A stretch of DNA of 62,477 nt, filler included, from Actinobacteria bacterium UBA7524 (GCA_002478275.1; 7 parts of 7 records of this genome joined end to end with filler, not necessarily neighbours in it); one strand, 5' to 3'. Numbered from the whole stretch's first letter, positions 3,001 through 9,000 are shown. A program made the numbers.

Positions 3001-6000
3001 CAGCTCGCTTGTATAGCCGGTGAGCGTCTCGATTGATTCGTGATTCAGGAGATGAAGCGGCCCCCCATCAACGAGCAGCTCGTCCGACATGCCGTCATTG
3101 TCTGTCCACTGGATCGCGTAGCCCCTCACATGCCTGGACAGGCTCTTGTTGATCGGAGGCAGTAGCGGTGGAATCGGAACCTTCTTGCCTGCCGCCCTCT
3201 TGGCCCAATAGCCACGTTGAGGGTTAACGTCCCCGGAAGTGGTNNNNNNNNNNNNNNNNNNNNNNNNNNNNNNNNNNNNNNNNNNNNTTAATTAATTAAN
3301 NNNNNNNNNNNNNNNNNNNNNNNNNNNNNNNNNNNNNNNNNNNCACATCATGAAGTAGTGGATGATGCGCATGTTCATGGGGCCGTTGACATACTCCAGT
3401 CCGGCCTGGAAGAAGGGCCAGTCCATCACGGGAGCGTAGATCGCGAATCCCGTGTACGCCATGAAGTACGTCAGCGGGATGGTCGCGAGGTAGGCGATCT
3501 TCTGCAGAACGCCGTACTTGGCTCCGAGCGGGTGGTCCTTCTTGAGGAACAGATAGTACTTGATCCACGGGATCAACTGGTGGCGGTTGGCCTGCTGCGG
3601 CAGCCNNNNNNNNNNNNNNNNNNNNNNNNNNNNNNNNNNNNNNNNNNNNNNNNNNNNNNNNNNNNNNNNNNNNNNNNNNNNNNNNNNNNNNNNNNNNNNN
3701 NNNNNNNNNNNNNNNNNNNNNNNNNNNNNNNNNNNNNNNNNNNNNNNNNNNNNNNNNNNNNNNNNNNNNNNNNNNNNNNNNNNNNNNNNNNNNNNNNNTG
3801 CGGCAGCCAGTTCTTGATGTCCGTGTCCTGCTCACGCGTACCGAGCATGACAGCGCTCTTGACGAAGAACGCTGCGATGATCCGGAAGGTGAGGTTGATG
3901 ATGAGCACGTACATGAAGAAGAAGTGCATACCGCGAGCGACACCCATGAATCCCGCGAAGAACGGGAAGTGGATGTAGAAACCTGAGAAGGCGAGTGCCA
4001 CCATGGCGATGAGGTTGATCCAGTGCGTCAGCACGAACACCATGGGGTGAGCCTCACGATAGTGAGCTGGGTGCGACATCTACTTCACCCCCATCGGCTT
4101 GGTGTGGATATGGGCTTCCTTGCCGGTCTTCGGTTCAATCACGTGAACCGCGCACCCGATTCAAGGATCGAAGCTGCGAGCGACTCGAGCGACGTTGAGC
4201 GGCTTTTCCACATCGGCGACGGGAGTACCGATCAGCGCCTCTTCCATCGGTCCGCGGACACCGTTGGCATCACGCGGAGCTATGTCCCAGGTTGTGGGAG
4301 CCACGACGTTGTAGCGGTCGATCTTGCCGCCCTTGATGTCCATGAAGTGCGCGACCGAGCCGCGTGGGGCCTCCCAGAGGCCGTAACCAGAACCGTCGAC
4401 GACATCGTGCGGCTCGAAGAGCTTGACGTCTCCGCCCTTCATGGCCTCGATGACCTCACCGACGAACTGTTCGGCCAGGTCCGCCACGTAGACAGCCTCG
4501 AGGTTTCGGGCTGCAACACGGCCGAGGAGAGATACCAGCACCTCGGGCTTTCCGCCGGCGCCAAGTGCCTCCAGCGTACCGTCGATCAGGTCCTGAACAG
4601 GCTTCACACCACGTACATATGCGACGACCATGCGCGCGAGCGGGCCGACCTCGGCAGGCAGGTCCTTATAGCGTACGGCTTTGCCCCACGAGTACTTGCC
4701 GTCCGTGTCGTATTCGACGTACTCGGCCTCGGTCTCGCCGACTTTCGGGTTCAGACCCGAAGGCGACTTGTACCAGGAGTGCTCCGTGTACTCTTTGACG
4801 TTGTCGACATCCACGTCTTCGACGCCGAGGCTCGCACCCTCGGAGAAGCCGGCCGGCAGGTACCTGTTGTTGAGCTCGAAGCTCGGGTCGTTGAACACGC
4901 CCCACGACAGGAAGTTGCCTCCACCGCCACCGAACTCGAGCGCGGCCGCGTAGAACGGTGCGATCGCCAGGGTGTCGGGGATCATAGCGTCACGGATGAA
5001 TGCATTGACCTTCAGGAGCCGGAACAGGATGTCGTCAAGCTTCTCCTCGGTCGGAACGAAGGTCGTTCCGCCATTGACCGACGTCATGAAGTGCGGGAAC
5101 TTGCCCCCCATGATGCCGATGATGGCTGCGGCCTCCGCCTGCATCTCGAGCGCCTCAAGATAGTGGGCGACCGCGATGAGGTGGAGCTCAGCAGGCATGT
5201 CTGCGGCGTACTCGGGATGGCCGAACCAGCCGTTGGTGAAGATGGAGAGCTGTCCGTTCTCGACGAACGCCGCCAGTCTCTTGGCCACTGCCCCGAAGTC
5301 CGATACACGCGTGCCTGCCGCCTGGGCAAGAGCGTACGTATCGGCGATGTCGGCGGAGAGCGCCTTGACGGGGTCTACGTAGTCGAGGGCACCGAGCGTG
5401 TAGAACCACAGGATGTGACTGTGCAGATATTGGGCGCATTCGATGATGTTGCGGACGAGTCGTGCGCCCTCGGGGATCTGTACGCCCATCGCGTCTTCCG
5501 CGGCGGTGGTCGATGCGTGTCCGTGGGATATGGGGCACACACCGCAGATCCGCTGTGAGATGTAGAACGCGTCTTGCGGGCGGCGGCCCTTGAGCACGGT
5601 CTCCATGCCGCGGTACAGCGTACCGGAGACCCATGCGTCCGTGACCTCGCCGCCGTTGACTTCGACTTCGACTCTGAGGTGACCCTCGATACGGGTCAAC
5701 GGGTCGATAACCGCGCGTGCCACTATTTACCGCCTCCCTTCTTGCGATCGTGTTCCTTGGCTTCCTCGTAAGGAGCTCCGCCGTCCATGCGGCCGGTGGC
5801 CTTCATGCCCAGGCCATGTACGGCGAGAGCCGCGACAGCAGCAGCCCCGACAGCAGCGCCTACGATGGTCGGCTGTGTGATGGTCTCGCCGATCAGTATG
5901 TCCCGATGACGGTTCAGGAACGGTACGCCGACATCGACCCAGTTGCCGCCCGCCTTGAGGGGGTTGGCCGAGCCGCAACCGATGCAGGGGGCACCGGATT

Positions 6001-9000
6001 CGACGCACCATGACGCGAGTCTGTTCCAGCGCACTATCGGGCAGTTCGTGAAGGTCTGCGGACCTTTGCAGCCCACGGGGTACAGGCAGTAGCCCTTGGC
6101 CTCTTCCGCTGAGCCGAACTCGTAGACGAACTCGCCGTTCTCGAAGTGCCCGCGGCGGGGGCAGTTGTCGTGTATCGACTGGCCGAAGATCAGCTTGGGT
6201 CGACCGAACGAGTCGAGCTTGTCGAGGATCTTACCGCTTTCCAGCGAGCCGAGCAGCAGGACGTCGACGACCATAGCCACCACCCACTCGGGATTGACCG
6301 GGCACGTGGGAAGGTTGATGACCGGGGTCGCGATGTCGTTGCGAGTGCAGAACTCCTGGACGCCGATTCCCTCGGCTGGATTGGGCCTTGCGGCCACCCA
6401 TCCGCCGTCCACAGCACACGATCCAACCGCAAGGATCGCTGCCGCGTTGCTGAACAGTTCGGGCAGCTCCTCTGTCTGCGGGTGTCCCGCGATGCGGAGG
6501 GTGTTGCCGTCTGCACCTGTCATGACGGTGCCTTCGTAGATACAGACGTAGCCACCCGCTTCCATCAGAGCCTTCTTTGCGTCCTCGGCATCGTCACCCT
6601 GGGCCATCATGACCGTCTCGAAGTACTCGATACTCAGTAGGTCGAGAACGACCGTAGCGACGTCAGGGTACTGGACCTGTGCCATGGACTCGGTGCAGCC
6701 GGTACAGGCGCCGCCGTTGACCCACAGTGCGGGCGTGAGCTTGGCGCCCTTCTCGACTGCCGCGGCGATCGCCGGGACCATGGACTCGGACAAACCGAGC
6801 ATCGCCGCGACCGAGCCGCAAAACTTGAGGAAATCGCGACGCGTCACTCCACGGAACGCGAGCATCGACTCGAAAGCGTCGTGGTCCTCATGTGCCATGC
6901 CATACACCTCCTTGTTCAGTAACGTGACCGGCTAGCGAAGATCTTGCGAGTTGGCCGGGAGCGGGACGAGCAAGGATCCGCACCCGGTTCGCGACAGGGG
7001 ACGTTCGGCATCCTCCTTTCCTGCTGAAGCAGAGACAGCGCGTACGAGTCGCGAAACAGGGGAGCACGCAGCCGATGTGGCCGTATGCAGGGTTCCCCGG
7101 GTTTCCAGGATCGGAGTCATGGAACTGTGTGTGATCGTGGGAAGCTGCGATGCCCCATGGGCGTTGCAGTGAGGTTCGGTGTAGTTCGATTCGGTGCGTG
7201 TCTGAGACGAGACCCGCCTCATGACCGGGGAGACTCAACCGCTGGCCTGTCTCCTGCCCAGCGCTGGCACGTTACTCGTAGCCCCCTTGATGTCATCGGG
7301 GTGTAGACCCGTGTCCCAAATACACCCATGACATGTCGTCGTGTATCGGCCTCCGTTGCGTTGTGCATATTCTACCCATCATCAGCGCGTAGTACCACCA
7401 GAATCTGGCCCTGACTACACCTGGCCCGTCCAGGGCATGAACTTATGTGCAGCGACGGTCTCGGCTGATGGAGGTGTGAACGAGATGAGCGCGAGCAAGC
7501 ATCAACGATCAATCACCGGTGAGTGGCCAGCCATCCCTGGGTCAGACGAAGAACTCGACGCGGCATCGGAAGCGTGCGAGCATGAGAGGGAGGAGATGAC
7601 TCCGCGACAGACCGCCGATTGCGCAGGCGCGGACATAGCCCAGGCGTACGAGAACGAGGAAGACGGCGGTTCATAGCGAACTATGTCACTCGTAGGATCT
7701 TCCGCGACAAGACGGCAGGGAGCGCTCAGGCGGTGGCTTCTGGTTCCCACAATGGTCTGGTGATCGACGTCAGGGGATTCACTCCCGGGCTTCGACGACC
7801 GATCGTTTTCGCGATCGTCGACAAGATGCTGTCGCTCGAATCTGACGACAGTCTTGTCGTGATATGCGATCACGAGCCTGCTGGCCTTGGCTACCAGCTC
7901 GACTTGCGGAAAGAGACCAGAGGCATGTATGAGTACTTCTACGACCAGCGTCTTGACGGTGCATGGGTTGCCTTGATCAGGCGTAAGTCGAGCTGACCTC
8001 GACAGACTGGCCGGTCGCTCAGTCGATTCTGGTGAGCAGGTCGGCGAGGTCGGTGAGCGTGCCTCGGTAGTCTGCAGAAGTCACCTCGAAGCTTCCGACA
8101 TAGAACGTCTTCATGCCGATGTCTGCTGCCGCCAGGTCCAAGACCGGGTCGTCTCCGACCATAAGACAAGAAGCCGGAGGCACATCGAGCATGGCGGCAG
8201 TCTCTCGGAAATAGGCCGGCTGAGGCTTGCACGCTGTCATCGTTTCGAAACTCGTGATCACATCCACGTCTTCGGGCGAGACCCCGGCCCACGACATCCT
8301 GTGCTCGATCGCGCGCAACGGGAAGATGGGGTTCGTGGCGACCGCAACCCGCATACCCCGATTCCTGGCGGCATCCAGTGCCTCTCGCGTTCCGGGCGAC
8401 GGGCCGATACCTTCACCGAGACCGGGAAACACCTCTTCGTAGAATCGCTCGAACACCGGCCGACACTCCTCGAAGGAGAATCCGGAGAGCAACTCGTACT
8501 CCTCGGCGAATACATCTTCGTTGGTGCGCCCCGGATGCACCTGCATCATGGCGCCCGTCGAGTCATGGATGGCTTTCATGACCCGGGCGTGGATATCGTC
8601 GGTATGCGCGAAGGTCTCCACTGCTTCTGCGAGTGCCCGGAAGTAGACGGCAAGGAACGCTTCGATGTCGATGTCGAGCAACGTGCCATCCAGATCGAAC
8701 AGTACTGCTTTCATGGCGCGGTTCGCCTCCGGTGGTCGTTATCGGGTTCGGCAGATGTTAGCACGTGACGCAAGAGAAGAGAGGGTTGACGGCGGGATAC
8801 CCCCGGGGGTATGCTACGGTTAATCAAAGTTCAGGTCGTCGGCCCGGCGTCCGTGCCCTCCGTAAGGTGCGGGACCCCGGTAGATGATGCGGATGGGAAG
8901 GGAACGGACATGGCGGCAGTTGGCGAGCGCGTTGGCTCGAAGCTAAGGGATATCTTCGGGGACCGGTATCGGGATGACAGAGTCGAGCGCAAGATGTACT

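Follow-up and report, generated by a model that had tools for sequence, protein, structure and literature searches.

A predicted [NiFeSe] selenoenzyme among the membrane-bound uptake hydrogenases of Coriobacteriia

Genes and motifs of the hydrogenase cluster

The window, i.e., the whole stretch of DNA analyzed here, comprises 62,477 nucleotides, filler included, from Actinobacteria bacterium UBA7524 (GCA_002478275.1). A hydrogenase gene cluster on its minus strand contains the following genes and features:

5723..6907 (-): small-subunit gene, 394 aa, with PF01058, PF14720, and a TAT signal
6824..6841 (-): RRDFLK, the small subunit's twin-arginine motif for TAT export (TIGR01409 match, residues 21-47)
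5975..6013 (-): SWCVESGAPCIGC of the small subunit, with Cys against the medial-site Pro of Desulfovibrio vulgaris Miyazaki (alignment to 1h2a_S)
5804..5869 (-): small-subunit C-terminal stretch of hydrophobic residues, by its sequence a likely membrane anchor
4080..5723 (-): large-subunit gene with the UGA read through, 547 codons plus TAG (4080-4082), GTG start at 5721-5723
5523..5552 (-): residues 58-67, with the N-terminal metal-ligand motif RICGVCPISH
4161..4163 (-): in-frame TGA at codon 521, proposed to encode selenocysteine (Sec) in place of the first Cys of DPCxxCxxH
4143..4169 (-): residues 519-527, with the C-terminal active-site motif DP-U-IGCAVH
4131..4150 (-): SECIS-like hairpin with the loop CGUGAU on a 7-bp stem (CGGUUCA/UGAACCG) whose first base is 11 nt past the UGA
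4083..4142 (-): 20-residue C-terminal extension past His527, probably cleaved by a maturation endopeptidase
3344..4079 (-): gene for the cytochrome b subunit, starting with the ATG at 4079 (PF01292, TIGR02125)

The TAG stop of the small-subunit gene and the GTG start of the large-subunit gene overlap by one base. The order small subunit, large subunit, cytochrome b, which is the arrangement of HydDB group 1i in Coriobacteriia, is present here. The cytochrome b gene is incomplete, being cut at the contig start (3344) and N-masked at 3606-3798; a full 229-aa copy is found in genome G034.

Without read-through, the large subunit is an open reading frame of 520 aa (4161..5723, minus strand) ending at the TGA. 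The earlier note had proposed a 546-aa read-through product carrying DP-U-IGCAVH, next to a small subunit and a cytochrome b fragment. The read-through, the motif, and both neighbors were recovered, and only the length was off by one. In a profile search, residues 38-527 of the read-through protein match PF00374 with 533.6 bits, and its C-terminus is ...SFDPUIGCAVHVIEPKTGKEAHIHTKPMGVK. By alignment ranges, U521 corresponds to C576 of Escherichia coli HyaB and precedes His527 by six residues, as C576 precedes H582. Excerpts of PMC8020662 describe C576U in HyaB as the replacement native to [NiFeSe] enzymes. Genes for the maturation protease were found in all five relatives searched and were not found in the assembly of UBA7524 itself.

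The medial cluster of [NiFeSe] enzymes is a [4Fe-4S] cluster. Such a medial cluster is also predicted here, since Cys occupies the position that is Pro at the medial [3Fe-4S] site in D. vulgaris Miyazaki. All features by which a [NiFeSe] large subunit is recognized at the sequence level were found, and they support this assignment.

Conservation of the in-frame TGA and of the hairpin

Matches to the read-through protein were found in 79 of the 81 genomes of the order. By our own tally of the match table for these 81 genomes, 70 have an orthologue with exactly one TGA, located in the C-terminal part, as the earlier note had reported for nearly all orthologues. Another five have the TGA in a paralogue only, three have only N-terminal fragments, one (G007) has only a Cys form, and no hydrogenase match was found in the other two. 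UBA7524 has a single match, and in most genomes of the order this query matches no copies other than UGA-bearing ones. Three genomes (G074, G105, and G117) have this enzyme type in both a Sec and a Cys copy.

In the class, the TGA is present in three further families, f26 (2/2 genomes), f28 (3/3), and f30 (1/1), and absent from f27 (24/24 matched, one partially) and f31 (5 matches in 33 genomes), in agreement with the earlier note. It is also absent from f32 (1/1), and no hydrogenase gene was found in the 14 genomes of f29. The Cys forms belong to the gut Coriobacteriales, namely f27, taken as Eggerthellaceae, f31, and f32. The title of the earlier note, by which the Coriobacteriia-type hydrogenase as such is a selenoenzyme, is therefore too broad. 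Among 107 distinct genes examined, 73 orthologues and 9 paralogues have TGA at the position of codon 521. The 26 codons past the UGA are open and conserved, with xGCxVH kept, in all 82 of these genes, and all 30 first loci have this open tail.

According to the rule from work on E. coli fdhF and bSECISearch, a bacterial SECIS element is a hairpin that follows the UGA at about 11 nt and whose apical loop contains G/U. The hairpin found here, separated from the UGA by a 10-nt spacer and having a 6-nt loop that contains GU, agrees with this rule in spacer, stem, and loop and is a candidate SelB site. In an alignment of 79 distinct rows, 93.1% of the cells are paired and two pairs vary in a compensatory way, as the earlier note had described. 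With at least 6 of the 7 stem pairs required, the hairpin is in register in 67/73 Sec orthologues and 9/9 Sec paralogues vs. 1/25 Cys/Ser relatives from Coriobacteriia, 0/8 named Cys enzymes of Coriobacteriia, and 0/64 enzymes of other phyla; the hairpin lies within conserved coding sequence of related genomes, so the hairpin and TGA counts do not represent independent events.

Codon usage follows the same division. Relative to usage across the same genes of the 73 Sec orthologues, Val+5 is encoded by GTT in 67/73 (10.5% of Val codons gene-wide), Ile+8 by ATT in 43/45 (7.0%), and Glu+9 by GAA in 68/69 (22.8%). Gly+2, like neighboring sites, is free at the synonymous position (GGG 25, GGT 21, GGC 17, GGA 10). 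Among the 25 Cys/Ser relatives, 3/21 use GTT and 2/23 use GAA. The combinations of codons +4 and +10 are mostly GCG/CCG (23), GGC/CGC (19), and GGG/CCC (15); stem pair 14-33 is GC in 34 and CG in 32 rows, and pair 15-32 is GC in 56 and CG in 19. None of 500 shuffles scored as high in covariation as the observed alignment, and the signal collapses in slid controls. These sequence comparisons show RNA-level conservation of the hairpin for the UGA-bearing genes alone, with rare synonymous codons and two compensatory pairs holding the stem.

The folding energy is ordinary for the composition (z = -1.28; 23/200 shuffles fold equally well), the lower helix of the minimum-energy fold is unconserved (65% of cells paired), and no Rfam family was matched by the hairpin. 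It overlaps the codons for A-V-H-V-I-E-P. The identical peptide is encoded by ordinary codons in Cys-type Desulfovibrio enzymes, so synonymous changes alone (GTT, ATT, GAA) would suffice for the stem.

Selenocysteine machinery and the reading of the UGA

In the 83%-complete assembly of UBA7524, selA, selB, and tRNA-Sec were not found. The earlier note had listed selD as missing too, but an N-terminal fragment of it is found where contig C37 ends, and an in-frame TGA in this fragment places U at the catalytic position. Additionally, each of the genome's two fdhA genes has one TGA, in the canonical context ...HQARIU HSSTV.... TGA is otherwise the stop codon of 751 of its 1283 long open frames. 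Among genomes of the order at least 90% complete, selA is over the cut-off in 67/72. The complete genome G019 has a selA-selB-tRNA-Sec operon, and in all three f28 genomes selA lies 2-4 kb from the hydrogenase. Conversely, in G007, the sole genome with only a Cys form, there is no selA, no selB or selD over the cut-offs, and no tRNA-Sec over the gathering score.

TGA-bearing relatives without selA are four in number. In G126 and G131, selD with a UGA and a tRNA-Sec match over the gathering score were found. In G034 (same family, 96% complete) and G165 (95% complete), no Sec gene is over any cut-off. These two, together with the genes missing from UBA7524, would fit a reading of the UGA as Cys or Trp by a near-cognate tRNA, at least in some lineages, with the hairpin acting as a general stimulator of read-through. 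However, in the same-family genome G015 selA, selB, and tRNA-Sec occupy a contig of just 3.7 kb, which is easily lost from binned assemblies, and UBA7524 itself has UGA at canonical Sec positions in selD and in both fdhA genes. With selA in 67/72 genomes of the order and the Cys-only G007, where no Sec gene is over a cut-off, also against it, near-cognate decoding is very improbable.

In Methanococcus and D. vulgaris, a Sec enzyme is made when selenium is available and a Cys isoenzyme otherwise. The UGA and the hairpin could likewise serve mainly as a selenium-sensing gate, as the paired copies in G074, G105, and G117 might suggest. Such a primary role is very improbable given the UGA-only copies of most genomes and the single match in UBA7524, and it would add to Sec insertion rather than replace it. 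That the UGA is a true stop, giving a truncated, inactive, or differently functioning 520-aa product, a pseudogene, or a sequencing error, is hardly credible: public gene calls do end there, and near relatives are nearly all about 520 aa long with 94-95% query coverage, but a protein that stopped at residue 520 would be missing two of the four Ni-Fe ligands at cysteine positions, the tail stays open in 82/82 genes, and the recurrence of the same TGA in 70 assemblies excludes sequencing error.

The [NiFeSe]-type selenoenzyme reading of the earlier note is therefore upheld by the UGA at the Sec site, the conserved frame, the UGA-linked hairpin, the Sec machinery of relatives, and the other UGA genes of UBA7524. 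The cluster very probably encodes a membrane-bound, periplasm-facing, cytochrome-b-linked uptake hydrogenase with a selenoprotein large subunit. Most likely, the main H2-oxidizing enzyme of this subsurface actinobacterium and of nearly the whole order has Sec at the nickel site. SelB loaded with Sec-tRNA(Sec) would bind the hairpin on the translating mRNA and direct Sec to UGA521. After Ni-Fe insertion, an endopeptidase would cut off the 20-residue tail behind His527, and the TAT signal of the small subunit would take the dimer across the membrane, where it would be anchored by the small-subunit C-terminal helix and cytochrome b. Electrons from H2 would pass through three FeS clusters, the medial one a predicted [4Fe-4S] cluster, and then enter cytochrome b and the quinone pool. 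Multihaem cytochromes with genes in other parts of the genome are the probable final acceptors.

Relation to known hydrogenases and implications

Judged by sequence similarity, the closest kin are Cys-type enzymes of groups 1b, 1c, and 1i, not HysA-type ones. Assignment as a HysA-type [NiFeSe] large subunit was rejected (NF045518, 430.7 bits vs. cut-off 780), and the small subunit scored 229 on NF045520 (cut-off 470). The cut-off of NF033181 ("NiFeSe_hydrog") was also missed (510.6 bits vs. 600); on this model the paralogue scores 452-455 and Cys relatives 491-525. Among solved-structure chains, [NiFeSe] enzymes give 320-342 bits vs. 428-440 for Cys-type Desulfovibrio [NiFe] enzymes. Thus, HysAB of D. 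vulgaris Hildenborough and Desulfomicrobium baculatum (HydDB 1a) shares Sec at the DPUxxCxxH position and the fourth Cys at the medial cluster site of the small subunit, but it is non-orthologous; the enzyme described here has a cytochrome b subunit and a small-subunit membrane helix, and its host belongs to the phylum Actinomycetota. A soluble cytochrome c3 is given as the partner of the enzymes of sulfate reducers in excerpts of PMC8020662.

The best solved-structure matches are found in groups 1b/1c/1d (Desulfovibrio fructosovorans HynB, E. coli Hyd-2 and Hyd-1). The D. fructosovorans enzyme has the VHVIEP tail too, and the cytochrome b plus anchor-helix architecture resembles that of Hyd-1. 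The natural enzymes of these groups differ in having Cys and no hairpin (none of the 64 other-phylum genes reaches the threshold); the engineered Hyd-1 C576U carries the same substitution, made artificially (PMC8020662, excerpts).

The gene order is also that of HydDB group 1i, "Coriobacteria-type (putative)". In the protein database, near relatives come from sources named Anaerosomatales or Coriobacteriia bacterium, and the cluster of Anaerosoma and Parvivirga is assigned to group 1i in the available part of PMC9686372. Membership in group 1i, drawn from that paper, the source names, and gene order rather than from the HydDB classifier, is putative. The gut families on which the group was defined (Eggerthellaceae) have Cys, whereas the environmental order studied here has UGA. 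In the accessible part of PMC5037454, [NiFeSe] variants are placed in HydDB groups 1a, 3a, and 3c only.

The earlier note had further stated that [NiFeSe] hydrogenases are not confined to sulfate reducers and methanogens. This was already implied by the Nautilia genome paper (PMC2628731) and, in the portion available, by PMC5113046. The latter reports "[NiSeFe]" clusters of small, large, and cytochrome-b-like subunits in Syntrophaceticus schinkii, Thermacetogenium phaeum, and Carboxydothermus hydrogenoformans. As described there, these clusters resemble the present one in having three genes, a TAT small subunit, a cytochrome-b-like subunit, and hosts that are neither sulfate reducers nor methanogens; the hosts, however, are Firmicutes. 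Sec and Cys copies within one genome recall the Vhu/Vhc and Fru/Frc pairs of Methanococcus, which differ as cytoplasmic group 3 enzymes, with Sec of Vhu on a separate small peptide. VhuU matches the large subunit weakly (21.3 bits), reflecting only the common motif.

No report of a Sec uptake hydrogenase in Coriobacteriia was found in the literature, and the public proteins are truncated at the UGA. [NiFeSe] enzymes have been described as a small group-1a subgroup of sulfate reducers and methanogens (PMC8020662, excerpts). New here are two more enzyme families that carry this Sec substitution in Actinomycetota, both membrane-bound and cytochrome-b-linked, and distributed across an entire order with cultured H2-oxidizing members. 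The annotation error is systematic: genes called about 27 residues too short (~520 aa) lose two metal ligands, which distorts hydrogenase classification and metabolic inference from metagenomes. [NiFeSe] hydrogenases are valued for high activity and quick recovery from O2, and natural Sec/Cys pairs in one enzyme background are now available for comparison.

We tentatively suggest that Sec may have arisen once, through synonymous changes turning the VHVIEP codons into a SECIS element, before duplication into the group-1i-type enzyme and its cytochrome-b-linked sister paralogue; the Cys enzymes of gut Eggerthellaceae and Coriobacteriaceae would then be Sec-to-Cys revertants. A selenium requirement is predicted for H2-driven growth of subsurface Coriobacteriia, and, if Sec had this single early origin, a cosmopolitan order of the subsurface would depend on selenium for its H2 oxidation.

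Hydrogenase operon and predicted enzyme type

Three hydrogenase genes were found on the minus strand at the extreme start of contig C45, whose first 13.7 kb make up positions 3344-17069. The window joins contigs C44, C45 (partial), C46, C47, C48, C50, and C58, with N spacers between them and further masked N runs inside, and gene-neighborhood arguments for the hydrogenase are valid solely inside 3344-17069. The features of the operon are as follows:

3344..4079, minus strand, cytochrome b gene, partly masked and running off the contig
4080-4082, minus strand, TAG stop of the large-subunit gene with the TGA read through (547 codons)
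4131..4150, minus strand, SECIS-like hairpin CGGUUCA-CGUGAU-UGAACCG, after a 10-nt spacer following the UGA
4161-4163, minus strand, TGA ending the table 11 call of the large-subunit gene (520 aa)
5723..6907, minus strand, small-subunit gene (394 aa)

The large subunit carries the N-terminal ligand motif RICGVCPISH and, after read-through, the C-terminus SFDP-U-IGCAVH followed by a 20-residue tail. The proposed selenocysteine, U521, is located six residues ahead of His527, which according to the alignment ranges is the counterpart of His582 in Escherichia coli HyaB. From this spacing, U521 corresponds to HyaB C576, described as the site where native [NiFeSe] hydrogenases have Sec (PMC8020662). 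In G034, a genome of the same family, the operon encodes the small subunit, the large subunit, and a cytochrome b of 229 aa, and heme-synthesis genes come next.

In the small subunit, there is a twin-arginine signal (RRDFLK), and the C-terminus contains a hydrophobic stretch. One of the subunit's Cys residues aligns with the Pro beside the medial [3Fe-4S] cluster of Desulfovibrio vulgaris Miyazaki, and a medial [4Fe-4S] cluster is predicted from this Cys, on the basis of what is reported for the P238C mutant and the [NiFeSe] enzymes. The best solved-structure matches of the large subunit were Cys-type Desulfovibrio [NiFe] enzymes (428-440 bits); the E. coli Hyd-2 structures reached about 372-378 bits, whereas HysA-type [NiFeSe] chains reached merely 320-342 bits. 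Because the scores for the HysA model and NF033181 are both under the cut-offs, the protein falls outside the known [NiFeSe] family. Judged by sequence, its active site would work like that of a [NiFeSe] enzyme, set in a protein built as a quinone-reducing membrane-bound hydrogenase. The Anaerosoma/Parvivirga cluster was assigned to HydDB group 1i, and selenium is not linked to it in the accessible text (PMC9686372); HydDB, as far as its description was available, places [NiFeSe] variants in groups 1a, 3a, and 3c only (PMC5037454).

Maturation proteases were found in all five relatives searched. The protease gene adjoins the operon in the genomes G019 and G051 and is located elsewhere, away from the operon, in the own family; searches with TIGR00072 or PF01750 found none in the own assembly.

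Upstream of the operon, positions 8811-12779 (plus strand) encode a 1053-aa FAD-linked oxidase/4Fe-4S/CCG fusion and then a Crp/Fnr-type regulator. On contig C46, positions 17410-27141 (minus strand) encode a 1972-aa multiheme cytochrome c whose domains are MtrC/MtrF-like and c7/c3, together with ResB/CcsA genes for cytochrome c assembly and a multiheme protein of 405 aa. The C46 multiheme proteins are candidate terminal acceptors, e.g., for Fe(III), of H2-derived electrons.

Distribution of the in-frame TGA and the hairpin

A large-subunit match was found in 79 of the 81 genomes sampled from the own order and was absent from the other two. In 70 genomes, there is an orthologue (54-100% identity) whose segment over the C-terminal motif contains exactly one TGA; in three of these (G010, G017, and G038), it is present as split pieces only. 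In five genomes (G005, G020, G029, G053, and G066), a paralogue (43-47% identity) is the sole carrier of the TGA; in three, contig ends leave nothing but N-terminal fragments; and in one (G007), a Cys form is all that is present. The class-wide sample included 151 genomes, each at least 90% complete. Here, the TGA was found in the families f26 (2/2), f28 (3/3), and f30 (1/1), as the earlier note had proposed for families beyond the order. It was absent from f27 (24/24 matched, one partial), f31 (5/33 matched), and f32 (1/1), and none of the 14 genomes of f29 had a large-subunit match. Family f27 is most likely Eggerthellaceae, since the near relatives of its sequences are named Adlercreutzia, Raoultibacter, Senegalimassilia, Slackia, and Anaerotardibacter.

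In total, 110 genes were extracted, and 107 were kept after three duplicate loci had been dropped: 73 Sec orthologues and 9 Sec paralogues with the in-frame UGA, 24 Cys forms, and one Ser form. In all the UGA genes, the frame is open to a stop approximately 16-31 codons downstream, and xGCxV(H/Q) is kept. Genome-wide reassignment of TGA is excluded because TGA is otherwise the most frequent stop in the own genome (it ends 751 of the 1283 open frames that span 300 codons or more; 63.5% G+C).

The Sec paralogue was found in nine genomes of the order (L052-L059 and L122; e.g., L053:781-4782). It shares 39-44% identity with this large subunit by tblastn (43-46% in the order-wide genome search) and has a group-1b-like tail, VHVIEPEHNKVLEFRVR, with the same UGA and an identical hairpin. 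In G005, a small subunit, a cytochrome b, and a maturation protease of its own accompany it.

Several variants were observed. In four loci of family f18 (L060, L064, L072, and L139), Gln replaces the His of DPUxxCxxH (DPUxGCGVQ), the usual protease cleavage site, and the UGA and the stem are retained. One gene of the Cys clade, L051:1998-3662 (minus strand; G066:C24), has Ser (AGC) at the position of the Sec/Cys ligand (DPSATCAVH) and may encode an inactive hydrogenase or one of altered function; the same genome also holds a Sec paralogue. Three genomes, G074 (C31, C22), G105 (C4, C2), and G117 (C11, C5), each combine a Sec and a Cys version of this hydrogenase type, and these may be selenium-dependent isoenzyme pairs.

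The hairpin is embedded in the coding sequence of A-V-H-V-I-E-P. The same ending, ...CGVHVIEPETNE, but with Cys, occurs in the [NiFe] hydrogenase of D. fructosovorans and in the enzyme of a Desulfovibrio MAG; the MAG gene has ordinary codons at those sites, and the stem is formed in none of the 64 genes from other phyla. The peptide alone cannot account for the hairpin, and codon choice in the 73 Sec orthologues is therefore the test.

Codon choice at hairpin sites in the Sec orthologues (site, codon, genes with this codon, gene-wide share)
Val+5, GTT, 67/73, 10.5%
Glu+9, GAA, 68/69, 22.8%
Ile+8, ATT, 43/45, 7.0%

At codon +8, 65 of the 73 Sec orthologues have T as the third base, whatever the residue. 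The adjacent synonymous sites are randomized in these genes, both at Gly+2 (GGG 25, GGT 21, GGC 17, GGA 10) and at Lys+11 (AAG 29, AAA 27). The 25 Cys/Ser relatives show ordinary usage at the hairpin sites (GTT 3/21, GAA 2/23).

The two outer stem pairs vary by compensation that changes even the protein sequence, with the combinations of codons +4 and +10 being Ala-Pro GCG/CCG (23), Gly-Arg GGC/CGC (19), and Gly-Pro GGG/CCC (15). In the alignment of 82 sequences (79 distinct rows), 93.1% of cells are paired; pair 14-33 is GC in 34 and CG in 32, and pair 15-32 is GC in 56 and CG in 19. The covariation score was reached by none of 500 shuffles and collapses when the partner is slid by one to three columns. 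At least six of the seven pairs form in register in 67/73 Sec orthologues and 9/9 Sec paralogues, compared with 1/25 Cys/Ser Coriobacteriia genes, 0/8 named Cys Coriobacteriia, and 0/64 enzymes of other phyla, the genomes being related and hence not independent samples. Six Sec genes fall under this number (L064, L070, L072, L077, L087, and L126), and L070, L077, L087, and L126 have a shifted palindrome, GUCCAC...GUGGAC. Besides the relatedness of the genomes, three results count against the hairpin: an Rfam scan of 4040-4260 gave no family match up to E = 10, its fold energy is ordinary and not significant (z = -1.28), and conservation does not extend to a lower helix.

The earlier note had described the Coriobacteriia-type uptake hydrogenase as a [NiFeSe] selenoenzyme. 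Its read-through reading holds, with the TGA conserved across the order, the frame open, and the hairpin tracking the UGA. On these grounds, the large-subunit gene appears to be a genuine selenoprotein gene, and this assignment is well supported.

A lower helix (columns 8-10 with 37-39) was rejected as not conserved, with 65% of cells paired. Fossil SECIS elements in the Cys forms were also rejected: GTT and GAA occur together in 2 of the 25 Cys/Ser genes, approximately the chance expectation, and only L049 (G074:C22) keeps six of the seven pairs. This Cys form reads GCG GTT CAC GTC ATG GAA CCG, giving a 6-bp stem that may be a hairpin fossil, though it is statistically indistinguishable from chance.

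Selenocysteine machinery

Searches of the own assembly (83% complete, 60 contigs) found neither selA nor tRNA-Sec, and selB did not pass its cut-off; the top Rfam matches for tRNA-Sec were rejected, being tRNA-Ser, Leu, and Tyr according to ARAGORN. The earlier note had also reported selD as missing. In fact, contig C37 breaks off within selD, after its first 70 codons, and these include a UGA at the position of the catalytic Cys/Sec residue (...SSKAGUAAKWGPGDL...). Two formate dehydrogenase genes contain one TGA each, in the canonical context HQARI-U-HSSTV, and a hairpin whose loop is of the GGUCU type follows in both. The positions of the three genes are as follows:

G000:C37:55908-56107 (L010:1489-1698), selD, N-terminal fragment
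G000:C23:8113-11238, minus strand, fdhA (formate dehydrogenase alpha subunit)
G000:C9:584-4306, plus strand, fdhA (formate dehydrogenase alpha subunit)

Counting the hydrogenase gene, selD, and both fdhA genes, the classic selenoprotein families are thus represented in this organism by at least four genes that a UGA interrupts.

Among the 72 genomes of the own order that are at least 90% complete, selA was over the cut-off in 67. The genes for selA, selB, and tRNA-Sec stand in a row in the complete genome G019, and in G015, of the same family, they make up an entire 3.7-kb contig, so that sel genes readily drop out of binned assemblies. In all three genomes of family f28 (G083:C26, G085:C9, and G087:C12; L116-L118), a distance of 2-4 kb separates selA from the operon of the Sec hydrogenase. 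The genomes without selA are G007, G126, G131, G034, and G165. A UGA-containing selD and a tRNA-Sec match over the gathering score are present in G126 and G131. In G034 and G165, selB, selD, and tRNA-Sec were not over the cut-off either, and these genomes are the main loose end for the Sec reading. G007, the sole genome of the order with the Cys form alone, has 99% completeness, no selA match, and no selB, selD, or tRNA-Sec reaching the cut-off, which is consistent with loss of the entire Sec trait.

Evolution and novelty of the Sec form

The tree included 122 rows, each family contributing no more than two of each kind; four TGA loci were omitted as members of the same lineage, and three outgroup rows were dropped for lack of the N-terminal motif. 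One clade (SH-aLRT 99) unites the orthologues with the paralogue and a single Cys gene from a "Gammaproteobacteria" MAG, and 61 Cys enzymes of other phyla fall outside it. All Cys/Ser forms of Coriobacteriia form a single clade (SH-aLRT 100), which was nested among the Sec orthologues in two quick trees. This nestedness was dropped as evidence for the direction of Sec/Cys change because the likelihood rose by 9.46 log units (p-AU 0.632) in a constrained search that kept the 35 sampled Sec orthologues as one group. One Sec origin with one reversion requires the same number of changes as two origins. The shared hairpin favors a single Sec origin, though convergence or gene conversion may also have produced it.

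The earlier note's wider statement, that [NiFeSe] hydrogenases are not confined to sulfate reducers and methanogens, is not new, as such clusters were already reported from genomes (PMC2628731; PMC5113046). Full-text searches of the literature returned no account of Sec in a group-1i hydrogenase or in one from Coriobacteriia. The available supplements of a selenoproteome survey give counts per organism without identities, e.g., 3 for Eggerthella lenta and 3-7 for Eggerthella, Cryptobacterium, and Slackia (PMC5029168), and an earlier, unnamed listing of a Coriobacteriia hydrogenase selenoprotein is therefore conceivable. These three genera have Cys in this hydrogenase here. In public protein calls, nearly all the near relatives are approximately 520 aa long, covering 94-95% of the read-through protein. 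The gene matters for hydrogenase biology, for selenium biology, and for annotation.
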